Notes: a model not told the origin generated them from the sequence alone. 64,000 nt of DNA from Polyangia bacterium (GCA_030424595.1 JAUHWG010000011.1:129130-193129), one strand, 5' to 3'; shown: positions 17,404 to 30,399, numbered from the stretch's first letter. Program-made: numbers and translations.

Positions 17404-19608
17404 TCACATGTTGTTGATGTACTGGATCGCGATCTCGCAGTACGGGTTGATCTCGATCGCGCGCTCAAAGCTCTCGCGGGCGCTGTCGGTGGCGCCGAGG
17501 CCGAGGAGCACCGCGCCGCGATAGGCGTGGACGAGATCGAGCTCCGGCTCCCGCTGCTCTGCGTACGCGAGCAGATCGAGGGCGTCCTGGGCGGCCGCGG
17601 GGTTGCCTCCTGCGGCGCGGTAGCGGGAGAAGGCGAGGGCCGCGTGGAGGACGGCGACGTCGTAGCCGTTTTGGTAGGCGTCCTCGAAGAGCGCCGAGGC
17701 CGAGGCGTAGTCCCCCTCGTTCATCGCCGCGACCGCGTCCTGGTAGCGAGCGCCGCCGATGTCGCCGCTCTCCTCGTCGACCGCGAGATCATCGAAGTCG
17801 AGGTTCGCGAGATCGTCCAGGTCGTCGTCGGAGATGCCCTTGTCGTCGAGGTCGACGTCGCCGAGGTCGACGTCGCCGAGGTCGACTTCGCCGAGGTCGA
17901 TGTCGTCGAGGTCGATGTCGTCGAGGTCGCCCAGGTCGATGTTGTCGTCGAGGTCCCCGAGCTCTTCGTTGAGGTCGTCGATGTCATCGCCGATGTCGCC
18001 GAGGTCGATGTCGTCGAGGTCGATGTCGTCGACCTCCACATCCTCGACGACCTCCTCGATCATGCTGACCTCGTCGAACTCGTCGAGGGTGCTGACCTCG
18101 GCGATGTCGTCGTCGACGTCCGCGAGATCGGGGAGCTCGTCGATCCCGGAGAGGTCGTCCAGATCGATCGCGTCGACCTCCTCGAGGGCGGAGAGCTCGT
18201 CGATCGGGATCGCCTCGATCGAGTCCTCCGGGGACGGGGCCGCGGGCGCCGGTTCGGGCTCGGGCTCGGGCTCGGGCTCGGGGAGCGCGAGGTCATCGAT
18301 GTCGCTGAGGTCGAGATCGTCGAGGTCGGGGAGGTCGTCGATGTCGCCGAGGTCGAGGTCCTCGACCGGGAGGTCCTCGAGGTCGGGTAGGTCCTCGACC
18401 ATCTCGACCTCGTCGACCATCTCGACCATCTCTTCGTCGTCGAGGAGCTCGACCTCGTCGTCAAAGCTCTCCTCGTCGAGGTCGAGGAGCGAGCCGTCGA
18501 GCGTCGTCGGCTCCTCGCGGATGGCGGGCTCCTCGTCGAGATCGCTGAAGTCGGACTCGTCGCCTTGGGTCTGGGCCTGGGAGAGCTTCTCGGCGCGGCG
18601 CACCTTGGCCCGGAGGTCGCGGGTGTCGAGGACGACGCTCTCGTCCTCGTCGAGGGCCGCGACGCCGGCGAACATCTCCTCGTCTTCGGTGAGGAGGGCG
18701 GGCATCCGCGAGGTCGACTGGGCCGCGGAGGGCAGGCGGCTGGGCAGGGGAGTGTCCTCGTACTCGCCGATGACGCTCGCAGGCTCGAAGTCCGGCGCGA
18801 GGTCGGCGTCGTCGAGCCCCTCGGGCTGGAGCTCGGGCTTTTTGGGCTTGGGTCGGGCGAGGAGGCGGCGGGTCTTGAGATCGACCACACCTGCGGCGAT
18901 GAGCCCGTAGAGCAGGGTCGCGGTCCGGGGGACGGGGAGGTCGAGCTCGCCGCTCAGGAGCTCGTCGACGCTGCGGCTGCCGTCGAGACCCTGCAGGACG
19001 TACACCTCTTCCGGGATCAGCTCTAGGGGATCCGCGTTGCTCGTCCAGGCCGGCACCGCGACCGGATACTTGCCGGCGAAGGGGCGGAGCGCGTGACGTG
19101 CTCGGTCGTCGGAGTAGCGCGACTGGATCGCCGAGATGATGATGTTCTCGTTGCACTCGCTGGGCGGCGCCTCGCCCGTGTCGTCGCCGCCGGGCTTGAA
19201 CTGAAAGCGTCCCTCCTCCCACGAGAAGATGTCGCCGAGCTTGCCGCGAAACTGGGCGTCGAGGCCGTACTGGAGGTTGCCCTCGGAGATGAGGCCCATC
19301 TCGATGAGGAGCTCGCCCTGCTTCTTGCCGGTGCGGCGCACCGCCTCGAGGGAGTTGTCGCTCTGCTCTTGGGTGATCAGCCCCTCAGACGCCAGGATCT
19401 GGCCGAGACACTCGGAGATCACGTTGGAGCGCACGGAGACCGGCTTGCCGGCGCGGAAGAAGATGACCTTCTTCGTCTGTCCGTTGAGCAAGTAGAGGCT
19501 GCCGGTGACCTCGGCGCGTGCGATCTGCCGGATCAGCTGGGGAAAGGGGATGCGCTTGAGCGACCCCTTGGTCGGAAACCCTGATTCGGTGTCGGCATGC
19601 TCGGTCAT
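17404..19608 (-). CDS. DUF4388 (PATAN-like) domain protein with a ~230-aa hyper-acidic repetitive linker and a C-terminal TPR-like domain
   Basis: N-terminus LKRIPFPQLIRQIARAEVTGSLYLLNGQTKKVIFFRAGKPV matches the DUF4388 pattern. The central region is ~60% Asp/Glu/Leu/Ile, with 15-18-bp in-frame DNA repeats encoding (D/E)(L/I)(G/D)D(V/I)D units. C-terminal TPR-like helices. Confidence 0.7.
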   Translation of the reverse strand: MTEHADTESGFPTKGSLKRIPFPQLIRQIARAEVTGSLYLLNGQTKKVIFFRAGKPVSVRSNVISECLGQILASEGLITQEQSDNSLEAVRRTGKKQGELLIEMGLISEGNLQYGLDAQFRGKLGDIFSWEEGRFQFKPGGDDTGEAPPSECNENIIISAIQSRYSDDRARHALRPFAGKYPVAVPAWTSNADPLELIPEEVYVLQGLDGSRSVDELLSGELDLPVPRTATLLYGLIAAGVVDLKTRRLLARPKPKKPELQPEGLDDADLAPDFEPASVIGEYEDTPLPSRLPSAAQSTSRMPALLTEDEEMFAGVAALDEDESVVLDTRDLRAKVRRAEKLSQAQTQGDESDFSDLDEEPAIREEPTTLDGSLLDLDEESFDDEVELLDDEEMVEMVDEVEMVEDLPDLEDLPVEDLDLGDIDDLPDLDDLDLSDIDDLALPEPEPEPEPEPAPAAPSPEDSIEAIPIDELSALEEVDAIDLDDLSGIDELPDLADVDDDIAEVSTLDEFDEVSMIEEVVEDVEVDDIDLDDIDLGDIGDDIDDLNEELGDLDDNIDLGDLDDIDLDDIDLGEVDLGDVDLGDVDLDDKGISDDDLDDLANLDFDDLAVDEESGDIGGARYQDAVAAMNEGDYASASALFEDAYQNGYDVAVLHAALAFSRYRAAGGNPAAAQDALDLLAYAEQREPELDLVHAYRGAVLLGLGATDSARESFERAIEINPYCEIAIQYINNM

Positions 19609-19792: not shown

Positions 19793-20590
19793 ATGGCAGG
19801 TAGTGTGCGGGCCGTGCAGACGCCGGTTGCAGTGGTCTTGGCGGCGGGGAAAGGCACGCGGATGGGCTCGGATCTGGCGAAGGTCCTCCATCCCGTCGCC
19901 GGAGCGCCGATGGTGTACTACCCGATTCGCTCTGCGCGGGAGGCCGGGGTCGGCGATGTCGTCGTCGTCGTCGGCCATCAGGCGGAGGACGTCCGAGCGA
20001 AGGTACAAGAGGCCTTTCCCGCCGCCCGCTTCGCCCTCCAACGCGAGCAGCGGGGCACCGGCCACGCTGTAGCTTGCGCGCTAGAGGCCCTTGAAGGGGT
20101 TGTTGGCCAGGTCCTGATCCTCAGCGGCGATGTGCCGATGCTGCGAACGCAGACCCTCAGCCGGCTCCTCAAGGCGGCCGAAGGCGCATCCGCGGGGCTC
20201 GCCCTCGCGACGTTTATTCCCCCCTCGGCGAGCGGCTACGGACGGATCCTCCGGGAGGAGGGCCGCGTCGTCGGGATCCGCGAAGAGAAGGACGCGAGCC
20301 CCGAAGAGCGATCCATCGGCGAGTGCAACGCAGGGGTCTACTGCGCCGACCTGGCGCTCTTGCGGGAGGTCCTGCCGATGCTCGGGAGTGACAACGCCCA
20401 GGGCGAGATCTACCTCACGGATGTCGTCGCCGAGGCGGCGCAGCGCGGTGATGTCGCGGCTGTGCTCGTCGACGCCGAAGAGGTCGCCGGGATCAACACG
20501 CGCGAGCAGCTGGCGATCGTCGACGCGCGCCTGCGCGATCAGGGGGCCTCCACGGCCCGGAGCGCGGCGACGAGCTCGTCCATCGTGTAG
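19793..20590 (+). CDS. Nucleotidyltransferase resembling the N-terminal uridyltransferase domain of GlmU; no left-handed beta-helix acetyltransferase domain
   Basis: VAVVLAAGKGTRMGSDLAKVLHPVAG...QREQRGTGHAV matches the GlmU pyrophosphorylase motifs. ATG at 19793. The ORF track's upstream extension is low-complexity. Confidence 0.65.
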   Translation: MAGSVRAVQTPVAVVLAAGKGTRMGSDLAKVLHPVAGAPMVYYPIRSAREAGVGDVVVVVGHQAEDVRAKVQEAFPAARFALQREQRGTGHAVACALEALEGVVGQVLILSGDVPMLRTQTLSRLLKAAEGASAGLALATFIPPSASGYGRILREEGRVVGIREEKDASPEERSIGECNAGVYCADLALLREVLPMLGSDNAQGEIYLTDVVAEAAQRGDVAAVLVDAEEVAGINTREQLAIVDARLRDQGASTARSAATSSSIV

Positions 20591-20913
20591 GGCTTTTCGA
20601 CGAAGGCGTTCGCGCCGGCGGCCAGCGCTCGACGGACCTCGCCGCGGACCGTGCTCGCGGAGACCGCGACGATCGGCAGGTCGCTAATCGTCCACAGCTC
20701 GCGGATCGTCCGGATAAGGGCGAGCCCGCCGGGGCCGGGGAGGCCGAGATCGACGAGGAGCACGTCCGGGCGCGCCGATCGGAGTGAGCGGAGCGCCTCC
20801 TCGCCGTCGTGGACCGCCTTGACGGTGAAGCCCTGCCGCTCGAGGATCCGGCGGGCGAGCACCACATGGGTCGGGTCGTCCTCGACATAGAGCACGAGGG
20901 TCGGCGAGGTCAC
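20539..20913 (-). CDS. Single-domain response regulator (REC only)
   Basis: LVLYVEDD...VLLVDLGLPGPGG...IVAVSAS...K at the conserved positions. Start is probably the GTG at 20913. Its 3-prime end overlaps the convergent nucleotidyltransferase by ~50 nt. Confidence 0.65.
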   Translation of the reverse strand: MTSPTLVLYVEDDPTHVVLARRILERQGFTVKAVHDGEEALRSLRSARPDVLLVDLGLPGPGGLALIRTIRELWTISDLPIVAVSASTVRGEVRRALAAGANAFVEKPYTMDELVAALRAVEAP

Positions 20914-20968
20914 CGGCTGAGAGTAGCAGCGCGGTCGCGCTGACAGTCGCTGAAGTACACTGCCGTCG

Positions 20969-22531
20969 ATGTCCCGTCGCCATCGGCCAAGGCCCGGCCC
21001 AGCGCAGCTCCGCGCCGCCCTCGGGGGTCGGATCCGCGGTGCGCTGGTCGCACTGTCGATCGGCGTTTCGCCGTCGATGGCCCTCGCCGAGCCCTCTGGC
21101 GCGGCTTCGTCGGAGCCGGCGGGATCTGCCAAGGTGAGCGGGTCATCGTCGGTCGACGACTCGGGCGTGGTCCCGCGAAACCTGCGGATCATCGAGGTCT
21201 CGATCGTCGGCACCGAGCAGGTCTCCGACAAGCAGATCATCAAGGCCCTCGAGAGCGAGGCTCTGACCGTCGGCGCGCCGATCCTCTGGCCGGAGGATCC
21301 CCGGGTCGAGCGGGCGCGCCTCCGCCTCTTGATGACCGGCTACTTCGGCCGGGTGACCCTCAAGCTGCGGCCGGTCGCCGGCGACGATGAGGGGGCGGTG
21401 CTAGTGGTCGACGTCGACGAACGGGCGTCCCTGACGGTCACCGACGTCTTCCTCGGATCCTCGGAGATGACCCCCTTTCACGGCGGTCTTCAGCTCGTCG
21501 AGCGCAACTTCCTCGGCCGGGCGATCCACCTCGGCGGAGGCTTTATCTGGGGCTCCCAGCCGCGCCAGCTGGCCAAGGCTCGACGTCAGCAGGGCGGTCG
21601 TCTCTTCGTCATGGCGCCGCGCCTGCCGGGGACCCGCGTCGGCCTCAGCGGGACCTTCTACGCCCTCTCGGCGAGCGAGCCCTACCGGGTCCTCGGAGCC
21701 CGCGACGACCCCTCGCCGAACCTCTTCCGCAGCGTCGACTACACCCGCGTCGGCGGGATCCTCGGGGCCTCGTTCCCGATCACCTCCCGCTTCGGCTTCG
21801 GCATCGACTACCGCTTTGAGCAGGTCAACGGCAGCCCGCCCGACAACCCGGTCTACGTCGCCCCGGAGGGCTACTCCACGGAGGTCGACCTCGGGCTCCT
21901 CTCCGGATCGCGACGCCTGACCTCGACCAATTTCACGATCAACTGGGACGGCCGGGATCGAGCGGCCCACTTCGGCCAGGGCGGTCGCTTCGCGCTCGAT
22001 CTCCACCTCGCGTCGCCCCTGGTCGGCAGCGAGTACGAGTACATTCGCCTGGTCGCAGGGGCAGGTTATACGTTTCGCCTGCCGTGGCGCCACTGGATCA
22101 CCCCGAGCATCCTCGCCGGCCAGATCGCCGGCGACGCGCCGCGATTCGAGCGCTTCTACGCCGGTGAGCTGAGCGAGCTGACGCCTGGCCGGGAGCTCGG
22201 GATCCTCTACTCGACCCGGTCTCCGTTTGATCTGCTCGGCACCGGCATCGACACGCGGACCTTCGGCGCGATCTTCGCCCGAGGCGACGTTGAGTACGTC
22301 TGGCCGCTCTTCCGTCGCTCTCGCTTGCGCGGCCTCGAGGGCGGTCATCTCTTCTTCGGCGCCGGCATCTTCACGATCGCCGGGGACGCGGACGAGCGGA
22401 GGAATTGGCGGGCTCTCGGCATGCCAGCGGCGCCGATCGGACTCAACCTGAACCTCGGTCTGCGCCTCGAGACCGCGCTCGGGACCCTCGACCTGTCGGT
22501 CGGCAACGTCATGCGGAGGTTGCCGCTGTGA
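20969..22531 (+). CDS. Omp85-family outer-membrane protein (one POTRA domain plus a bacterial-surface-antigen beta-barrel)
   Basis: N-terminal signal peptide. POTRA-like LRIIEVSIVGTEQVSDKQIIKALE...FGRVTLKL. Gly/aromatic-rich beta-strand-like C-terminal half ending in an aromatic-rich terminal strand. Confidence 0.7.
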   Translation: MSRRHRPRPGPAQLRAALGGRIRGALVALSIGVSPSMALAEPSGAASSEPAGSAKVSGSSSVDDSGVVPRNLRIIEVSIVGTEQVSDKQIIKALESEALTVGAPILWPEDPRVERARLRLLMTGYFGRVTLKLRPVAGDDEGAVLVVDVDERASLTVTDVFLGSSEMTPFHGGLQLVERNFLGRAIHLGGGFIWGSQPRQLAKARRQQGGRLFVMAPRLPGTRVGLSGTFYALSASEPYRVLGARDDPSPNLFRSVDYTRVGGILGASFPITSRFGFGIDYRFEQVNGSPPDNPVYVAPEGYSTEVDLGLLSGSRRLTSTNFTINWDGRDRAAHFGQGGRFALDLHLASPLVGSEYEYIRLVAGAGYTFRLPWRHWITPSILAGQIAGDAPRFERFYAGELSELTPGRELGILYSTRSPFDLLGTGIDTRTFGAIFARGDVEYVWPLFRRSRLRGLEGGHLFFGAGIFTIAGDADERRNWRALGMPAAPIGLNLNLGLRLETALGTLDLSVGNVMRRLPL

Positions 22532-23172
22532 AGCGCCGCGGCTTCATCGTCGCGGGCCTGAGCCTCCCGCTCGTCGCCGCCGCAGGCGGACGCGAGCTGC
22601 TCCGGGCGCGTCGGGCCGACTTCGTCGAGGTCGGCGACGCGGTGCTGATGAGCGTCAGCCTCCCGGAGCTCCTCTCGACCCGCGATCGTGACGCGATGGC
22701 GTCGATCGAGTCGGCCTTCTCGACGACGCTGGTCTTTGAGATCAAGCTCTACCGCAGCGGCTCGACCCGGGCCGTGAGCGCCCAGCGGCGGATCGTCAAG
22801 ATCCAGTGGAACCCCTGGAAGGAGCGCTTCGGCGTCCAGACCAGCGATCCGGGGCAGGGGACCCGAACCGCCTACTTCCGCAGCCGTAATCGAGCGATCG
22901 CCCGCGCTGTCGGGCTCGATCGGATCCAGATCGCCCGCTCGCGCGACCTCGACCGCGGCCGCGACGCGACCTACTTCGTCACCGTCGTGGGCCAGCGAAA
23001 CCCGATCACCGCGGCGCTCCTGCCTGAGGAGGAGGTCGTCGGCGGGCAGGGGCAGGGCAGCGATCTGTCGGCCTTCTCGCGCTGGATCGGGATCTTCATC
23101 CGCGACACGCCGGCGGCGGAGAAGACCTTCGCCATCCGCACCACCCCAGCCTTCTACCTCGTGCCCCGATGA
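22528..23172 (+). CDS. Small secreted/periplasmic protein (possibly DUF4390-like) encoded between the Omp85 gene and the sensor-kinase gene
   Basis: GTG start overlaps the Omp85 stop (GTGA). Signal peptide MKRRGFIVAGLSLPLVAAAGG. The 3-prime end overlaps the kinase start (ATGA). Confidence 0.5.
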   Translation: MKRRGFIVAGLSLPLVAAAGGRELLRARRADFVEVGDAVLMSVSLPELLSTRDRDAMASIESAFSTTLVFEIKLYRSGSTRAVSAQRRIVKIQWNPWKERFGVQTSDPGQGTRTAYFRSRNRAIARAVGLDRIQIARSRDLDRGRDATYFVTVVGQRNPITAALLPEEEVVGGQGQGSDLSAFSRWIGIFIRDTPAAEKTFAIRTTPAFYLVPR

Positions 23173-24749
23173 GCGTCCCGTCCCTCCGCCGACATCGCGC
23201 CGCGCTCCGGGTCCCCTGGTGGGGGCGGTTGGAGTCGCGGGTGATCACCGCGCTGGTGGCCCTCGGGATCCTCTGCGTCGGCGCCTCGGCGTACCTGGTC
23301 AAGCTCACCGTCGAGTACTTCGACGGCTTGGTCGGCGCCGCCATCGAGCGCAGCGACGACGCCGTGGACATCGCCGCGGCCCACTACGGGGCCCTGGTCG
23401 CGGTCTACAAGGAGGCCTACCGGGCGCGCTCGCGGGCGTTGGCGCGCGAGGTCGACGCGGAGCTCGGCGCGGCGGATCTGGAGAGCGTCTCGCTGGTGCT
23501 CCGGCGGGCGCTCGAGGCGGAGGCGGACCTCGTCGCGCTGAGCCTGGTCCGCGGCGACGAGGTGGTCATCGAGGTCGAGCGGCGCGGGCTCTTGCCGGAG
23601 GACTCGGGGGCATGGATCTGGGTCGAGGCGGAGCCCGTCGAGCTCCGCGGGCCGCTCTTTGTCGCCGAGAACCTGGAGCTCTCGGTCCTCTTCGCGCTCG
23701 ACCCGGCGATCGAGCGGCGACACCAGGCGCTCGGCCAGCTCAAGCGGGAGGGCGAGCACATCGCCGTCGGGCCGCGCGCGATCGTCGATCGGGATGAGCT
23801 GGAGAACGCTGTCTTTAGGGCTATTGCAGCGGCTTCAGCCCTGGTGTTGATGATCGCCTTCATCGCCGGATTTCTCCTCGCGAGGGCGACGACCCGCAAG
23901 GTCTCGGAGCTCTCTCGGGTGATGCGGGAGGTCGCCGGCGGTGACCTCTCGGTGCGGGTTCGATCCCTCGGCAAGGACGAGCTCGGGGTGCTCGGCGCGG
24001 CCTTCAACGGGATGCTCGACGAGCTGGCCGCGGCGCAGGGCAAGGTCGCCTACCTCGAGCGCGTGAGCGCCTGGCAGGAGATGGCGCGGCGGATCGCCCA
24101 CGAGATCAAGAACCCGCTGACGCCGATCCAGCTCGCGGTGCAAAACCTTCGCGACAAGGATCCCAAGGTCAACGCCCGGTTCAGCGCGCTCCTCCAGACC
24201 TCCGCCGAGATCGTCGAGGACGAGATCGAGGCGCTGCGGCGGATGGTCGGCACCTTCTCCCAGCTCGCCAAGGTCCCCGAGGCCCAGCTCGCCCCGGTCT
24301 CGCTCGGCCGGGTCTTGACGGAGTTCGAGCGGGCCTACGGCCACCTTACAGAGCACCCGAGCGACCGCCTCGAGATCGGCGCTGCGCCGGATGTCACCTG
24401 TCTCGGCGATCGTCAGCTCCTCAAGCAATGCCTCGTCAACCTGGTGGAGAACGCGGTGCTCTCCTGCCGCGAGGCAGGCGGGGGGCCGGTACAGGTCCGG
24501 ATTCGAGCAGAGGTCGCGGACGACGAGGTCGAGATCTGGGTCGAGGACAACGGGCCGGGGATCGAGCCAGAGCGGCGAGAGCGGGTCTTTGAGCCCTACG
24601 AGTCCTCCCGCGAGGAGGGGAGCGGGCTCGGCCTCGCGATCGTCAAGAAGATCATCCTCGATCACCGGGGCGAGGTCCGGGTGGAGACGAGCGAGCTCGG
24701 CGGCGCGGCGATCGTGATCCGTCTGCCGATCGAGCCGGCCTCGACCTAG
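23169..24749 (+). CDS. Sensor histidine kinase (two TM segments, HAMP, HisKA, HATPase_c; NtrY-like)
   Basis: HAMP (VMREVAGGDLSVRV). H-box IAHEIKNPLTPI. N-box LVNLVENA. G-boxes DNGPGI and GSGLGLAIVKKI. Confidence 0.85.
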   Translation: MSVPSLRRHRAALRVPWWGRLESRVITALVALGILCVGASAYLVKLTVEYFDGLVGAAIERSDDAVDIAAAHYGALVAVYKEAYRARSRALAREVDAELGAADLESVSLVLRRALEAEADLVALSLVRGDEVVIEVERRGLLPEDSGAWIWVEAEPVELRGPLFVAENLELSVLFALDPAIERRHQALGQLKREGEHIAVGPRAIVDRDELENAVFRAIAAASALVLMIAFIAGFLLARATTRKVSELSRVMREVAGGDLSVRVRSLGKDELGVLGAAFNGMLDELAAAQGKVAYLERVSAWQEMARRIAHEIKNPLTPIQLAVQNLRDKDPKVNARFSALLQTSAEIVEDEIEALRRMVGTFSQLAKVPEAQLAPVSLGRVLTEFERAYGHLTEHPSDRLEIGAAPDVTCLGDRQLLKQCLVNLVENAVLSCREAGGGPVQVRIRAEVADDEVEIWVEDNGPGIEPERRERVFEPYESSREEGSGLGLAIVKKIILDHRGEVRVETSELGGAAIVIRLPIEPAST

Positions 24750-24985
24750 TCACCCGCTCTTGTCGGCCCTGGGGCCCGATCCCGAGGGGCGGCGCGCCGT
24801 GTATGCGCAGGGCATACCTCGGCGGTCTTGACGTCAGCCACTCTCCCCCCGGCCGGTCCTGCAAAAGCGGTTGCAGCCCGCTTTAGGGCTGTGCAACGAT
24901 CCTTTCGCCCGATCGCAGCGGATGCTGGCGGGCGGTGAGTCCAATGCTGAGGTCGAGACACTCGAAGAATGACAGGTGCTCTGTC

Positions 24986-27967
24986 ATGGGGAAGGGTCTC
25001 CTCAGCGCCAGCGTCGTCTTCTTCGCCTGTACCTCGGCGGGGACGCCGACCGAGGTGCCCGCGCCGATCGTCGAGGAGACGTCGCGCGCGAGCGAGACTG
25101 AGGTCCGCACATCATCGCCGATCACGCTGCGCGCCGACGATGGGACGTCGTTTCGCCTGCGTCGCCTCACGGTGCGCGGCGAGGTCGACGGCTTCCTCGG
25201 GATGACCGAGCTCGACATGGCCTTTGAGAACCCCGAGGGGCGGGCGCTCGACGGGCGCCTCTCGTTGGACCTGCCGCCGGGCGCTCGCGTCGTCCGCTTC
25301 GCTGTCCGTGAGGGCAGGTCGTGGCGCGAGGCCGAGGTCGTCCCGCGGCGGGCCGCCTACGACTCGCTGGTCGACGGCGACATCGAGCCGGCTCTCCTCG
25401 CGCAGGGCATCTCGGGGGATCGTCTGCTCGCCCGCTTGCCGCGGATTCCTGCCGGCGATCTGCGGGTGGTCGTCGGCTACGTCGAGGAGCTCCGCGGCCG
25501 CGAGAAGCCCTACCGTCTCGGCCTCGCGGGGCTGACTCGCCTCGACGAGCTCGACGTTCGGGTCGCCGGCGTCGACATCCACGGGCGGGGCCCGGGCGAG
25601 CTCAGAGAGCTCTCGAGCGGCCGCTCTGTCTACGAATTCCGCGGAAGCGGCCAGATCGACGCCGACATCGTCGTCCAGGCGCCGGAGCTGCGAGGTCGCG
25701 GGATCCGCAACGACAACCAGGTCATCGCCCGGATCGCCCCGGTGCCGCACGATCACGGCGATCCGATCGACAGCCTGACCGTGCTCTTCGACACCAGCGC
25801 TTCGCAGGCGCTGGGCTTCGAGGCCCAGGTCGATCGTCTCCAGGCGCTCCTCGCTGAGCTTCAGGCCTGGGCCCATGAGGACATCCCGCTCCGCGTCGTC
25901 TGCTTCGACCAGAGCGCCGAAACTGTCTTTGAAGGCAGGGTCTCGGACTTCGGCGAGCGTCACCTCGAGGCTATCCGCCGCCGCGGCGCCCTCGGTGCCT
26001 CCGATCTGGTCGGCGCCCTCCGCTTCGCCGGATCGCAGCCCTCGCGGACCTACAAGCGCCTGCTCATCTTCACCGACGGTGTCATCACCGCCGGGGCCGG
26101 GCACGAGGAGGGGATTCGCTCCGAGGTCGCGCGTTTGACCGAGGTCGGGGTGGAGCGGGTCGACGCCATCGATCTCGGATCGGGCGGGCGGGAGCCGGTC
26201 CTGGCCGCGATCAGCCGCTCGGGCATCGAGCGTGACGGGCTCATCCTGCGGGCGGACGTCGCCCCCGAGGTCGCGCTTCGCAAGCTTCGCAACCAAGTTG
26301 TCTCCGGTGTGCGCCTCTCTGTCCCCGGGAGCAGGTGGGTCTTCCCTGAGGTCATCGACGGGATCCAGGCGGACGACACGGTGCTGGTCTACGCGGACAT
26401 CGCCGAGGACGCGCCCTTCGAGGTCGTGCTCGACGGTCCTCTCCCGGCTCGGCCGACGATCACTACGGTCAACAGCTCCGCGGCGCCGCTCCTCGAGAGC
26501 GCCTGGCGAGCGGCCCACGTCCGCTGGATGGAGGAGCAGCTGCGAGACTGCGCCCCGGAGCTGTGCGCGAGCTGGCGCAAGCGGGTCACCGAGGGCTCGA
26601 TCCGGCATCGGATCGTCAACGACGCGACCGCCCTAGTGATGCTCGGTGAGGGCGACGAGGCCCGCTTTGGGCTCAATCCCAAGGCGAGGCCAGGGCTCCT
26701 CTCCTTCGGTCGCTCCGGCGTGCTCCAGAGGCCGCGAGCGGCCCTCCCAGAGGCTCCCGCCGATCCCGCGAGGAAACGGGCACGGGCTCACGCCTTGATC
26801 CCGGAGCCGGTTCTCCCGGAGATCCGCCGGGCCGTCGCCACCTCTGCGGTGGCGGAGAGCAACGGTCGGCCGACAGCTCCGCCCGGCGCCGATCGAGCGC
26901 CGACAGGCCGTCCGGACATCGGCCCAAAGCCGCGGATCAGCGCCGCCGCCCTCGCCGATCGCCGCTGGGAGGGCGCGCCAGAGGAGGTCAAGGACAAGCC
27001 CCAGCTCGGACCTCAGCGCCGGCCGAAGGACGCCTATGACGGGCTCCTCCTCGCGGTCATGGACAGCCTCCGCCTCGGCGATCGACCGAGCGCCAAGAGC
27101 TTGGCGGAGCGTTGGCGGGCGGACGAGCCGGCGAACGTCCTCGCGCTGATCGCCTTGGGCGAGGCGCTCGAGGCCAACGGTCACAAGGAGGAGGCTGCGC
27201 GGGCCTACGGCTCGATCATCGATCTCTACCCGATGCGCCCCGAGATGCGGCGGCTCGCGGCGGCTCGGCTCGAGCGCCTCGGCACCGCGACCCGGTGGCT
27301 CGTCGTCGACAGCTACGGCCGGGCGCTGCGGGGTCAGTCGGACGATCCGTCGAGCCATCGCCTCCTCGGCTACGCCCTCCTCCGCAGCGGCTACTACCGC
27401 GAGGCGCTCGAGACCCTGGTGTCGGGCTTCGCGTGGGCGAGCGCGGACGAGCGCTCGCAGACCATGGCGCGGGTGCTCTACGACGACATCGGCCTCGTCG
27501 GCGCGGCTTGGATCGCCGCCCGTCCGGCGGACGAGGAGTTCGTCCGCCGCTATCTCGAGGTCCAGGAGGTCGCCCTCGCGAGCGAGCCGTCGCTCCGCTT
27601 TGTCCTGACGTGGGACACACCGATCAGCGACGTCGACCTCCACGTCCGCGACGGCGACGGCCGCCACGCGTTCTACAAGCACCGCAACCTCCAGTCCGGC
27701 GGTCTGCTCTACGGCGATGTCGCTGCGGGTCGTGGGATCGAGGCCTTCGTCATCGACGGCGAGCCTCAGGGGTTCCCCTACAACCTCCAGGTCGACTACT
27801 TCACCCTGGATCCGCTCCTCGGCTACGGCATGGGGAAGGTCGAGATCATCGAGCACGACGGAAAGGGAGGGCTGACCTTCGATCAGCGGCCCTTCGTCGT
27901 CTCACGCGACGGGGCGAACGTGGACCTCGGTCTCCTCGCCTCACTGCCGACCGGCGAGTCGCCCTGA
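24986..27967 (+). CDS. Large lipoprotein with VIT + von Willebrand A domains and a YfaP/DUF2135-like C-terminal domain
   Basis: Lipobox VVFFACTS. vWA block LTVLFDTSASQ...LLIFTDGV. C-terminal TPISDVDLHVRDGDGRHAFYKHRNLQSGGLLYGDVAAGRGIE resembles YfaP. Confidence 0.7.
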   Translation: MGKGLLSASVVFFACTSAGTPTEVPAPIVEETSRASETEVRTSSPITLRADDGTSFRLRRLTVRGEVDGFLGMTELDMAFENPEGRALDGRLSLDLPPGARVVRFAVREGRSWREAEVVPRRAAYDSLVDGDIEPALLAQGISGDRLLARLPRIPAGDLRVVVGYVEELRGREKPYRLGLAGLTRLDELDVRVAGVDIHGRGPGELRELSSGRSVYEFRGSGQIDADIVVQAPELRGRGIRNDNQVIARIAPVPHDHGDPIDSLTVLFDTSASQALGFEAQVDRLQALLAELQAWAHEDIPLRVVCFDQSAETVFEGRVSDFGERHLEAIRRRGALGASDLVGALRFAGSQPSRTYKRLLIFTDGVITAGAGHEEGIRSEVARLTEVGVERVDAIDLGSGGREPVLAAISRSGIERDGLILRADVAPEVALRKLRNQVVSGVRLSVPGSRWVFPEVIDGIQADDTVLVYADIAEDAPFEVVLDGPLPARPTITTVNSSAAPLLESAWRAAHVRWMEEQLRDCAPELCASWRKRVTEGSIRHRIVNDATALVMLGEGDEARFGLNPKARPGLLSFGRSGVLQRPRAALPEAPADPARKRARAHALIPEPVLPEIRRAVATSAVAESNGRPTAPPGADRAPTGRPDIGPKPRISAAALADRRWEGAPEEVKDKPQLGPQRRPKDAYDGLLLAVMDSLRLGDRPSAKSLAERWRADEPANVLALIALGEALEANGHKEEAARAYGSIIDLYPMRPEMRRLAAARLERLGTATRWLVVDSYGRALRGQSDDPSSHRLLGYALLRSGYYREALETLVSGFAWASADERSQTMARVLYDDIGLVGAAWIAARPADEEFVRRYLEVQEVALASEPSLRFVLTWDTPISDVDLHVRDGDGRHAFYKHRNLQSGGLLYGDVAAGRGIEAFVIDGEPQGFPYNLQVDYFTLDPLLGYGMGKVEIIEHDGKGGLTFDQRPFVVSRDGANVDLGLLASLPTGESP

Positions 27968-28031: not shown

Positions 28032-28799
28032 CTACTCGACGAAGGGGGAGCGGATCATCGGCCGCTTCGGTCGACTGTCTCCGAGCTCAGCGTAGCTGCG
28101 GCGGAGGTAGTTCGCCTCGAGGGATCGAGGGTGGACGGGCGCCGAGCCCAGCACAGCGGTCACAGCGGCTCGCCAGAGGCCTCGCCCGCTGACCCCGGGG
28201 AGGGGGAGGGCGTCGCTGGGCAGCTTCTCGCGGTAGGGGAGGACGGCTGGGCCGACGGCCCGGGTCCGCGAACGATCATCTCTTCGAGCATGTTCCAGAG
28301 AACAGCACTGGTCGTCACCCTGGGCGTTGAGGAGCGTGAGCCCGTCGTCGCCCGAGAGCTCGTAGAGGCCGGCGTAGACCTCGCTGCGACGGGCGTCGAG
28401 GAGCGCCAGGACAGTCTCTCCAGGCTCTCCTGAGCCGGCGAGCGCGGCCAAGGTCGAGAGCGGGTAGCAGCCGCAGCCGAGGCCGAACGCGAGGCCCTGG
28501 GCGCTGGCGATCGCGACCCGAGTGCCTGTGAACGTCCCGGGCCCGCAGCCACAGGCGATGCCGGCGATATCGCGCAGGCCGATCCCTGCGTCGGCGACGA
28601 TGGCGTGGATCCTGTCGACGAGCCAATGCGAGGCTTGGTTCGCGCCGTCATCCGCCTCGAACGAGGTGACGAGCTCGGCTCGGCGCCCCTCCACGTCGAC
28701 ACGCCCGAGGGCGATCGCGGTCCGGGGGGTGGACGCGTCGAGGGCGAGGATCCACGCGGGGGCCGAGCTAGGGGGTGAGCCAGAAGCGGATGACGTCAT
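28032..28799 (-). CDS. tsaB: tRNA threonylcarbamoyladenosine biosynthesis protein TsaB (YeaZ)
   Basis: ILALDASTPRTAIAL...IACGCGPGTFTGTRVAIASAQGLAFGLG. The ATG at 28799 overlaps the rseP 3-prime end by 32 nt. The start is uncertain. Confidence 0.75.
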   Translation of the reverse strand: MTSSASGSPPSSAPAWILALDASTPRTAIALGRVDVEGRRAELVTSFEADDGANQASHWLVDRIHAIVADAGIGLRDIAGIACGCGPGTFTGTRVAIASAQGLAFGLGCGCYPLSTLAALAGSGEPGETVLALLDARRSEVYAGLYELSGDDGLTLLNAQGDDQCCSLEHARRDDRSRTRAVGPAVLPYREKLPSDALPLPGVSGRGLWRAAVTAVLGSAPVHPRSLEANYLRRSYAELGDSRPKRPMIRSPFVE

Positions 28800-30399
28800 T
28801 GCGGAGGGCGATCAGCAGGAGGGCGAGGATGATGATGAGGCCGATGGCGCTGGTGATCTCGCGGGCGCGCTGGCTTAGGGGTCGTCGCCGCACCGCCTCG
28901 AGGGTGAAGAACATCAGGTGGCCGCCGTCGAGGATCGGGATCGGCATGAGGTTGACGAAGCCGAGGTTCATGCTGATGAGGGCCATCAAGAGGAGGAACT
29001 CGCCGGGGCCCCGCTCGGCCGCGGTGCCGGCGACGTTGAAGATGCCGACGACGGAGGAGAGCTCATCGACGCCGCGCTGGAGGGTGACCAGCTGGCGCAG
29101 GCTCGTCCACATCATCCGCAGGAGGGAGAGGGTCTCGTCGAAGGAGGCCCGCGCGGCGTAGGTGAAGCGGCCGCGGATCGGCTCCGCGGGGGGCAAGGCC
29201 CGGCTCTGGTAGGGGTTCGCGCCGAACCACAGGTAGCTGTGCTCTTGCCGATAGACGTCACGCCACGTCCGTGTCTCTTGGGACACCTCGATCGCGCGAG
29301 GCTCCTCGCCGAGAGATCGGACCTCGATCTCGATCGAGCCCTCCCCGTGCCGATCGAGGAGGGTCGCCAGGGTCTCCCAGCGGGAGATGGAGCGTCCGTC
29401 GACGGCCAGGATCTGATCGCCGGGGCGGAGGCCTGCGCTCGCGGCGGGCGAGTCCGGGTCGACGGAGCGGACGAAGGTGTTGGCCGGCAGGATCCCGGTC
29501 GAAAATTTTGTCTCTGCCCGCGGGAGCAGCTTGGCGTGCGCCGACTCGAACCAGAGGAAGGTGCCGATGTCCGCGCGGGCAGGCTTGGCGCGGAGGTAGG
29601 TCAGGCGAAGCGACGTGTCGCGGGTCTTCGCCAGCTCCTTCTCCAGCTGCTCGACCGTGTGGATCGGCTCACCGTTGATCGAGGTGATGATGTCGCCGGT
29701 CCGCAGACCCTCGGCGAAGGCGGGGGAGTTGGGGTCGTTGAGGCCGATCTGCGGGGCGTAGACCCAGGGGTAGACGCCGAGGAGCCCGATCGGCTGCGAC
29801 TCGCCGAGAACGTCCTTAATCACTGTTCTACGCGGAGTCACGAAGCGATCGAAGCGGATCCCGTCGCGCTCGATCTGGAGCCTGAGCTCGCGCTCGGGGG
29901 CGACCCGAACGTGGCTCTGCATGTCGTGCCACGAGTGGACATCGTCCCCGTCGATCTCGATCACACGATCGCCGGCCTGGATCTCCGCGGCCGCTGCGGC
30001 CGAGTCGTCGAGGACCGTGCCGATCACCGGGGGACCGACGACCGTGTGGCTGAGAAAGAAGGCGAAGTAGAGCAGCAGCGGCAGGACCAGGTTCACCACC
30101 GGGCCGGCGACGAGGACGAAGTAGCGGGCCCACAGCGGCTTGTTGCGCAGCGCACGGTGGGCCTCCTGCGGCGGGATGTCCTCATCGGCGCCGTGTCCCA
30201 GGAGGCGGACGTAGCCGCCCAGGGGGATCGGCGCGAGGCAGTACTCCGTCTCGCCGATCCTGACTCGTGCGAGGGGCTTGCCGAAGCCGAGCGAGAAGCG
30301 GAGGACCTTGACGTTGACGAGCTTCGCCGCGACGAGGTGGCCGAGCTCGTGAAAGAAGATCAGCGGGCCGATGAGGAGGATGAAGGCGAGCAGTTGCAC
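28768..30399 (-). CDS. rseP: RIP metalloprotease RseP (site-2 protease) with PDZ domains
   Basis: HELGHL zinc motif in the first TM segment. Two PDZ-like segments. C-terminal LDGGH motif. Confidence 0.9.
   Translation of the reverse strand: MQLLAFILLIGPLIFFHELGHLVAAKLVNVKVLRFSLGFGKPLARVRIGETEYCLAPIPLGGYVRLLGHGADEDIPPQEAHRALRNKPLWARYFVLVAGPVVNLVLPLLLYFAFFLSHTVVGPPVIGTVLDDSAAAAAEIQAGDRVIEIDGDDVHSWHDMQSHVRVAPERELRLQIERDGIRFDRFVTPRRTVIKDVLGESQPIGLLGVYPWVYAPQIGLNDPNSPAFAEGLRTGDIITSINGEPIHTVEQLEKELAKTRDTSLRLTYLRAKPARADIGTFLWFESAHAKLLPRAETKFSTGILPANTFVRSVDPDSPAASAGLRPGDQILAVDGRSISRWETLATLLDRHGEGSIEIEVRSLGEEPRAIEVSQETRTWRDVYRQEHSYLWFGANPYQSRALPPAEPIRGRFTYAARASFDETLSLLRMMWTSLRQLVTLQRGVDELSSVVGIFNVAGTAAERGPGEFLLLMALISMNLGFVNLMPIPILDGGHLMFFTLEAVRRRPLSQRAREITSAIGLIIILALLLIALRNDVIRFWLTP

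Follow-up and report, generated by a model that had tools for sequence, protein, structure and literature searches.

The stretch of DNA analyzed here, 64,000 nucleotides from a Polyangia bacterium (GCA_030424595.1 JAUHWG010000011.1:129130-193129; hereafter the window), carries three overlapping genes on its plus strand that encode a barrel protein of the Omp85 superfamily, a secreted protein of the domain family DUF4390, and a membrane-bound sensor histidine kinase. An initial annotation had read these genes as a single operon for an outer-membrane protein, a periplasmic protein, and an inner-membrane kinase. All three are genuine genes that are coupled in translation and have been inherited together over deep divergence. 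Their layout is as follows.

20969-22531, plus strand: Omp85-superfamily barrel gene, 520 amino acids (Pfam PF01103)
22515-22531, plus strand: first coupling junction, with GGAGG at 22515-22519 followed by GTGA at 22528-22531, in which the GTG start of the DUF4390 gene lies over the TGA stop of the Omp85 gene
22528-23172, plus strand: DUF4390 gene, 214 amino acids, GTG start; the stop-to-stop open reading frame begins at 22405
23169-23172, plus strand: second coupling junction, ATGA, in which the kinase start lies over the DUF4390 stop
23169-24749, plus strand: sensor histidine kinase gene, 526 amino acids (Pfam HAMP, HisKA, and HATPase_c)

Both junctions, GTGA and ATGA, can be read directly in the sequence, and the 4-nucleotide overlaps and cotranslation of the three reading frames stand as they were first described. 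The GGAGG motif lies 8 nucleotides from the GTG start of the DUF4390 gene. Pfam annotation likewise agrees with the three original domain assignments, namely an Omp85 protein, a periplasmic protein, and a HAMP-HisKA-HATPase kinase. A scan for promoter and terminator consensus sequences was uninformative in this DNA of 70% G+C.

Conservation of the gene order

The gene order was followed in two sets of loci. The first, obtained by a scan with an Omp85 alignment and limited to one genome per species, comprises 51 Nannocystales loci from Nannocystis, Enhygromyxa, Plesiocystis, Paraliomyxa, and metagenome-assembled genomes (MAGs), with the closest MAG matches being 78-85% identical; the window accordingly belongs to a Nannocystaceae genome. 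The second was drawn from metagenomes by means of an alignment of 16 DUF4390 sequences from a distant sister clade, which yielded 80 loci; of these, 56 extend far enough in both directions to be evaluable. All 51 Nannocystales loci have the three genes in the order Omp85, DUF4390, kinase, and an Omp85 gene upstream together with a kinase gene downstream was found in 56 of the 56 evaluable distant loci. Every evaluable locus has Omp85 directly upstream of DUF4390, down to a DUF4390 identity of about 20%, and the kinase lies downstream of DUF4390 in 107 of 108. Among the eight contigs examined that carry second-tier DUF4390 matches, with profile scores between 37 and 83 bits, seven show an Omp85 gene with a POTRA domain, a DUF4390 gene, and a HAMP kinase gene. 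The arrangement is far beyond chance, and the three-gene synteny, whose conservation across Myxococcota the initial annotation had suggested checking, is present in more than 100 loci, with the neighborhood very strongly conserved.

Close coupling is also widespread. A 4-nucleotide overlap is possible at the junction between Omp85 and DUF4390 in 45 of the 51 Nannocystales loci and in 47 of 78 distant loci, and at the junction between DUF4390 and the kinase in 32 of 51 and 46 of 63, respectively. At most of the remaining junctions, the two genes are separated by, or share, only a few nucleotides.

The barrel protein

By its sequence, the barrel protein is a member of the Omp85 superfamily that is distinct from BamA, TamA, and TpsB. 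It matches PF01103 over residues 180-513 with 44.7 bits against a cut-off of 24 and presumably has the 16 strands of such C-terminal barrels. The protein is composed of a signal peptide (residues ~1-41), a low-complexity linker, a POTRA domain (~70-152; window ~21176-21424), and the barrel (~153-520). Since only about 110 residues, partly low-complexity linker, separate the signal peptide from the barrel, no more than one POTRA domain can be accommodated. Hhalign placed residues 72-422 on residues 347-673 of Escherichia coli BamA, from POTRA5 through loop 6, with 92% probability; within this alignment, residues 72-151 fall on BamA POTRA5 (347-421). A sequence profile search of the PDB with the barrel protein matched only BamA POTRA5 and the first barrel strands, and pre-computed annotation assigns PF07244 (POTRA) to several of its homologs. 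In loop 6, 'FYAGGSSTVRGF' of BamA aligns with 'FYAGELSELTPGRELG' of the barrel protein, where VRGF is replaced by an invariant PGRE and the Arg (R408) is invariant. The C-terminus is RRxPL rather than an aromatic residue.

Three more specific identities were considered and rejected. The BamA equivalog TIGR03303 scored 48.1 bits against a cut-off of 297 and matched at model positions 356-624 only, and BamA has five POTRA domains rather than one. TamA, the partner of TamB, has three POTRA domains, and the gene downstream of the barrel gene encodes the 214-amino-acid DUF4390 protein rather than TamB (DUF490). As for TpsB, the protein has a single POTRA domain rather than two and no ShlB or POTRA_2 match at E ≤ 0.01, and its partner lacks a TPS/haemagglutination domain. 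The earlier reading of a surface-antigen barrel with a single POTRA domain was therefore confirmed by the PF01103 match and by the Hhalign alignment to BamA POTRA5. The claim that the arrangement is neither the classical BamA/TamA nor the classical NtrYX one also held, given the equivalog score, the single POTRA domain, and the lack of NtrX.

In total, 177 homologs of the barrel protein were found, and the 120 of them that were listed are 50-96% identical; NCBI and JGI label them generically as "BamA/TamA family outer membrane protein". Myxobacteria carry several divergent BamA paralogs, and a "BamA-like" subfamily with one to three POTRA domains has been described without a function being assigned (Heinz and Lithgow 2014, PMC4104836). 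With BamA, TamA, and the Omp85-TpsB members, the barrel protein shares a PF01103 barrel behind a POTRA5-like domain, an alignable loop 6, and the retained Arg of VRGF. It differs from BamA and TamA in its single POTRA domain, in the replacement of VRGF by PGRE, in its RRxPL end, and in a score far below the BamA cut-off. Furthermore, its gene has no skp/lpxD or tamB neighbors and is instead fixed to the DUF4390 and kinase genes.

The DUF4390 protein

The middle reading frame, originally described as a signal-peptide protein of about 215 amino acids, is a real gene for a conserved DUF4390 protein. The window protein matches Pfam PF14334 with 27.3 bits against a gathering cut-off of 27, and all 29 aligned homologs match the family individually (best E = 1.6e-9). 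Its GTG start is fixed by 42 close homologs of 211-219 amino acids, which begin M(K/R)RR. The N-terminal hydrophobic segment spans residues 5-20. A Tat signal was considered in view of the RRxFL sequence of the Nannocystales proteins and was rejected because the wider DUF4390 clade has classic AxA signal peptides of the Sec type.

The AlphaFold2 model has a core in which 150 of the 214 residues reach a predicted local distance difference test (pLDDT) score of at least 70, with about ten β-strands and two short helices. The predicted fold is an Ig/FnIII-like β-sandwich, and sandwiches of this type are typical protein-protein interaction modules. A Foldseek search with the model against the PDB gave no significant match. 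The loop of residues 162-195 (window 23011-23112) is modeled with pLDDT below 50, yet it holds the invariant residues F183, S184, R185, W186, G188, and F190 (FSRWxGxF); the wider clade carries FFGSFVSVFVN at this position, and the motif is hydrophobic and strand-prone. This loop, conserved but disordered in the model, is a plausible candidate for a strand that becomes ordered on a partner, that is, for a β-augmentation segment.

Proteins of this kind are rare. The DUF4390 alignment profile found only 141 proteins among 1.84 billion representatives, about 24 of them close and a second tier at no more than 83 bits. The few matches with a named source come from Myxococcales, Polyangiaceae, and one "Proteobacteria bacterium". 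DUF4390 proteins of the distant clade are only 20-30% identical to those of Nannocystales. Two matches to the profile have other architectures: a 499-amino-acid protein has an eCIS_core (DUF4157) domain and carries DUF4390 at its C-terminal end, and a weak match falls on the cadherin repeats of a 2584-amino-acid protein, which fits an Ig-like sandwich.

With these data, it is extremely improbable that an ordinary BamA/TamA paralog happens to stand beside an unrelated kinase, or that the middle reading frame is spurious. The generic "BamA/TamA family" annotation and the divergent BamA paralogs of myxobacteria (PMC4104836) would suit such a chance adjacency, but the equivalog score of 48 bits against 297, the single POTRA domain, and synteny in more than 100 loci argue against it. 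A spurious reading frame, in turn, is at odds with 42 close and about 100 distant homologs, a confident β-sandwich model, and a Pfam match.

The sensor kinase

Two hydrophobic segments of the kinase flank a periplasmic region of about 160 amino acids. The protein runs from a first transmembrane segment (residues ~21-48) through the periplasmic α/β region (~49-210) and a second transmembrane segment (~211-243) to the HAMP, DHp (H311), and CA domains. AlphaFold2 orders the secondary structure of the periplasmic part as a long helix, a second helix, four strands, and a further helix, and in the model this succession of helix, helix, β-sheet, and helix matches PDC sensors. HAMP ends at residue 287 and HisKA starts at residue 302, with a continuous helix between them in the AlphaFold2 model; neither Pfam nor the model revealed a PAS domain in this interval, and Pfam gave no match to the NtrY_N region (PF19312) in the window kinase.

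As a reference for NtrY, we used the product of a Shinella ntrY gene situated between ntrC and ntrX-trkA, where the NtrX equivalog scores 737 bits. This NtrY matches NtrY_N with 133.5 bits and has a PAS domain at residues 431-538. The transmitter of the window kinase is 37% identical to it over 242 amino acids, and the H-box ARRIAHEIKNPLTPIQL is identical; JGI names several homologs of the kinase NtrY or COG5000. The initial label "NtrY-like" is thus justified for the transmitter and H-box, at 37% identity, but not for the architecture, which lacks NtrY_N and PAS. A tblastn match on Caballeronia plasmids or chromids was rejected as a DUF4390-NtrY locus, since it comprises an unrelated HAMP kinase and a σ54 regulator and no DUF4390. 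Among the reading frames of at least 90 amino acids in the 64-kb window, this is the one histidine kinase detected.

The receiver and other neighboring genes

Four further genes lie around the operon.

20539-20913, minus strand: single-domain CheY-like receiver (REC), 124 amino acids, GTG start (Response_reg PF00072, E = 7.8e-26, residues 7-119)
19793-20590, plus strand: GlmU-N-terminal-like sugar-1-phosphate nucleotidyltransferase, 265 amino acids (Pfam NTP_transf_3 and NTP_transferase)
24935-27967, plus strand: VIT/VWA/TPR protein, 1010 amino acids (weak, sub-threshold Pfam matches)
17404-19608, minus strand: PatA_N/DUF4388 protein, 734 amino acids, with an MshE-like cyclic di-GMP-binding motif and C-terminal TPRs

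The receiver gene is divergent from the Omp85 gene, with a gap of 55 nucleotides between the two starts. Its translation has all the catalytic residues (E11, D12, D13, D55, S85, and K107) and no output domain. The receiver occupies the same position in at least 39 of the 51 Nannocystales loci and is present in a minority of distant loci (among them L058, L065, L067, L107, L119, L122, and L131). The initial annotation had counted three receiver proteins in the window; a receiver-domain profile found this one only among the window's reading frames of at least 90 amino acids. Its statement that no DNA-binding regulator follows the kinase was correct, the next gene being that of the VIT/VWA/TPR protein, and no recurrent DNA-binding regulator was found near the triad in 85 broader-clade loci or the 51 Nannocystales loci. 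The only extra genes that recur around the triad are those for TsaB, RseP, a Pal-like OmpA protein, and REC.

The stand-alone nucleotidyltransferase matches only the N-terminal, uridyltransferase half of NCBIfam GlmU models (model positions ~5-245 of 450-460) and has no left-handed β-helix (LβH) acetyltransferase half. The 3' end of its gene overlaps that of the convergent REC gene by 52 nucleotides. It lies upstream in 44 of the 51 Nannocystales loci and is not found in distant-clade loci. Where the receiver is absent in Nannocystales, the nucleotidyltransferase gene abuts the Omp85 gene, and in one such locus (L001) it overlaps the Omp85 start by 4 nucleotides. It probably represents lineage-specific context. 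In many Nannocystaceae loci, the gene for the VIT/VWA/TPR protein follows the kinase gene, but cultured Nannocystis species have it upstream and in the opposite orientation; this shift of position points to a local rearrangement that spared the triad. Neither the nucleotidyltransferase nor the VIT/TPR protein extends beyond Nannocystales and REC is patchy, whereas the triad is far more stable.

Several other features of the region were recorded. The PatA_N/DUF4388 gene, which contains a very long Asp/Glu-rich repeat region (~17.7-18.9 kb), is a conserved Nannocystales neighbor whose position is rearranged in cultured Nannocystis species. The genes tsaB and rseP (window 28032-30399, minus strand) travel with the triad into the distant clade (L058, L059, L145, and L146), where they are usually convergent, and tolQRAB and a Pal-like OmpA gene lie near the triad in some distant loci. 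In E. coli, rseP is directly upstream of bamA, and the rseP linkage may be a relic of an ancestral rseP-bamA neighborhood that gave rise to the Omp85 paralog. Elsewhere, the parts of the window that were sampled hold chromosomal housekeeping genes, including tyrS and those for a peptide-chain release factor, an SppA-like peptidase S49, an S46 peptidase, an aminotransferase, and a CNNM/CorC transporter.

Discussion

The closest known counterpart of this operon is found in Bordetella, where the gene of a periplasmic DUF4390 protein, plrP, shares 4 bp with plrS, which codes for an NtrY homolog (Wolber et al., J Bacteriol 2026, PMC13001219). According to the same study, plrP always adjoins ntrY/plrS homologs in β- and γ-proteobacteria, and PlrP behaves genetically as a third component that restrains the phosphatase activity of PlrS via its PDC domain. 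Its survey, which covered proteobacteria only, reported DUF4390 in β-, γ-, and ζ-proteobacteria and in Magnetococcia, and it mentions no outer-membrane partner of DUF4390 (PMC13001219). The operon in the window shares with PlrP-PlrS-PlrR a signal-peptide DUF4390 protein of about 200 amino acids encoded directly 5' of a membrane kinase with a 4-bp overlap, and the kinases have in common a periplasmic α/β domain, HAMP, and an NtrY-type H-box and transmitter. There are also differences. An Omp85 gene precedes DUF4390 here, whereas rsmB precedes plrP in Bordetella; the kinase has neither an NtrY_N region nor a PAS domain; and, in contrast to the PlrR/NtrX arrangement, no σ54-type regulator or trkAH follows the kinase, a divergent single-domain receiver being present in many genomes instead. 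Moreover, the lineage is Myxococcota, and the DUF4390 sequences of this phylum are remote from PlrP, with the window protein standing at the Pfam threshold. Relative to NtrY-NtrX, the identical H-box and the transmitter, 37% identical to that of a bona fide NtrY, are shared, but NtrY_N, PAS, and NtrX are not.

Two further systems resemble this one in concept. In Caulobacter, NtrZ likewise restrains the phosphatase activity of NtrY (bioRxiv 10.1101/2021.04.17.440287). The idea of a small periplasmic restrainer of a kinase phosphatase is common to both cases, but NtrZ does not belong to the DUF4390 family, and its gene lies apart from ntrYX. The other is an envelope-stress relay that runs from RcsF through BamA and outer-membrane proteins (OMPs) and IgaA to RcsCDB, in which RcsF is a lipoprotein and the Rcs genes are not in an operon with bamA. 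Here the similarity is one of logic only, in that an Omp85-family machine would occupy a small periplasm-facing protein and thereby decide whether this protein can reach an inner-membrane signaling protein. The proteins are unrelated; the barrel in our case is a dedicated paralog, and the inner-membrane partner is the kinase itself. In the literature, we found no description linking Omp85 with DUF4390, NtrY, or histidine kinases in this arrangement. DUF4390 beside an NtrY-type kinase is already known, and the dedicated Omp85 partner is the new element. The lack of PAS, NtrY_N, and NtrX is new as well, as is a CheY-like receiver found in many, but not all, of the loci.

As a working explanation, which we put forward tentatively and at slightly less than an even chance, the three genes would form a conserved envelope module of Polyangia-type Myxococcota in which the barrel, the DUF4390 protein, and the kinase relay information from the outer membrane. 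By analogy and homology with PlrP-PlrS, the DUF4390 protein would act on the PDC-type periplasmic domain of the kinase and set the balance between its kinase and phosphatase activities; that DUF4390 tunes the kinase through this domain is probable on the same analogy. The dedicated Omp85 paralog would be the outer-membrane partner of DUF4390, a role read from strict synteny only, and its POTRA domain or its barrel and lateral gate may bind or sequester DUF4390, with the FSRWxGxF segment as the putative β-augmentation strand for binding. The amount of DUF4390 left free for the kinase would then report the state of the outer membrane, in a logic like that of RcsF, BamA, and IgaA. A barrel that controls the supply of DUF4390 is suggested because Omp85 lies upstream in every evaluable locus and because the three proteins would be placed in the outer membrane, in the secreted fraction, and in the inner membrane, respectively. 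Envelope-related genes near many of the loci (rseP, tsaB, tolQRAB, and the Pal-like OmpA gene) were also counted in its favor. The output would probably be phosphotransfer to the divergent CheY-like receiver where it is present. A more specific form of this explanation, in which the Omp85 barrel was co-opted to serve a signaling pathway as its arm in the outer membrane and its POTRA domain or lateral gate holds DUF4390 and releases it or bridges it to the kinase, is rather doubtful.

Several observations weigh against such a relay. One Polyangiaceae MAG (L060; GCA_046351315.1, 5481-8388) keeps Omp85 and DUF4390, with 4-nucleotide overlaps, without an adjacent kinase, and a NAD_binding_7 (siroheme-synthase-like) protein takes the place of the kinase; Omp85 and DUF4390 therefore have a function together for which no adjacent kinase is required. 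The DUF4390 proteins of Myxococcota are remote from those of β- and γ-proteobacteria, which makes any transfer of function from PlrP an extrapolation. The periplasmic domain of the kinase is the least conserved part, with a mean identity of 33% compared with 63% for the DUF4390 sandwich and 54% for POTRA, and is thus a poor fit to a fixed interface between DUF4390 and the sensor. At least six Nannocystales loci, and the majority of the distant ones, lack the receiver, and no partner-partner gene fusions were seen among the matches of the DUF4390 profile search. Two earlier proposals hold only in part. The view of the three proteins as one physical envelope-spanning unit has the conserved gene order as its sole basis, and L060 shows that the outer-membrane pair can stand alone; the receiver as the partner of the kinase is favored by its frequency and intact catalytic residues and disfavored by these absences.

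In the main rival explanation, Omp85 and DUF4390 form a dedicated pair for transport or assembly at the outer membrane, like TpsB-TpsA, PlpD, or TamA-TamB. DUF4390 would then be exported or surface-displayed by the barrel, or would serve it as a periplasmic co-factor for the insertion of a particular substrate. The kinase, for its part, would do no more than regulate these two proteins or share their expression, and its sensing would not pass through DUF4390. The junction of Omp85 and DUF4390 is indeed the most constant feature of these loci, kept even without the kinase and with a 4-nucleotide overlap possible in 45 of 51 cases. In addition, the sensor domain of the kinase is poorly conserved, and FSRWIGIF and FFGSFVSVFVN loosely resemble a β-signal-like strand. 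The order of a barrel gene first and a gene for a small secreted partner second also recalls tpsB-tpsA. Nevertheless, we consider a transport or assembly pair unlikely. A kinase gene, usually in translational coupling with DUF4390, occurs in 107 of the 108 evaluable loci, and the barrel protein has one POTRA domain and no ShlB/TpsB-type Pfam match, with neither a TPS domain nor a TamB-like DUF490 in its company. In all other cases studied, DUF4390 is the partner of a kinase, and no Omp85 protein is involved (PMC13001219).

A weaker rival retains the DUF4390-kinase unit as a pair of the PlrP-PlrS type and regards Omp85 as a co-regulated neighbor that makes no contact with DUF4390, for example a target of the regulon or an envelope-biogenesis gene on a common promoter. 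The PlrP-PlrS precedent needs no outer-membrane partner (PMC13001219), and because rseP, tsaB, and tol-pal also travel with the triad, its order could partly reflect a conserved neighborhood. The other neighbors vary by clade, however, while Omp85 is found upstream of DUF4390 in every evaluable locus, and the stop-start overlaps between these two genes imply stoichiometric co-translation. L060, moreover, preserves Omp85 with DUF4390 and not DUF4390 with the kinase. A barrel that is only a co-regulated neighbor is, on this evidence, distinctly unlikely, and the relay from barrel through DUF4390 to kinase is the explanation that we continue to favor.

Kinases of the NtrY family influence virulence, the maintenance of the envelope, and redox and nitrogen responses. 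The genetic link of DUF4390 to these kinases dates only from 2026 (PMC13001219). By placing DUF4390 between a kinase and a dedicated barrel, the operon described here points to a testable signal source, namely the outer membrane or a substrate handled by Omp85, and provides a natural setting in which to look for the binding partners of DUF4390. It also defines a conserved single-POTRA subfamily of Omp85 proteins with an obligate small partner, which would represent a new type of accessory protein or a new client relationship. To our knowledge, the Omp85 superfamily has so far been associated only with protein insertion and translocation. If the proposed relay is correct, it would add a signaling role to this superfamily, give kinases of the DUF4390/NtrY class their first physical input, and constitute a new trans-envelope signaling architecture beside Rcs, Cpx/NlpE, and the TonB-dependent transducers.

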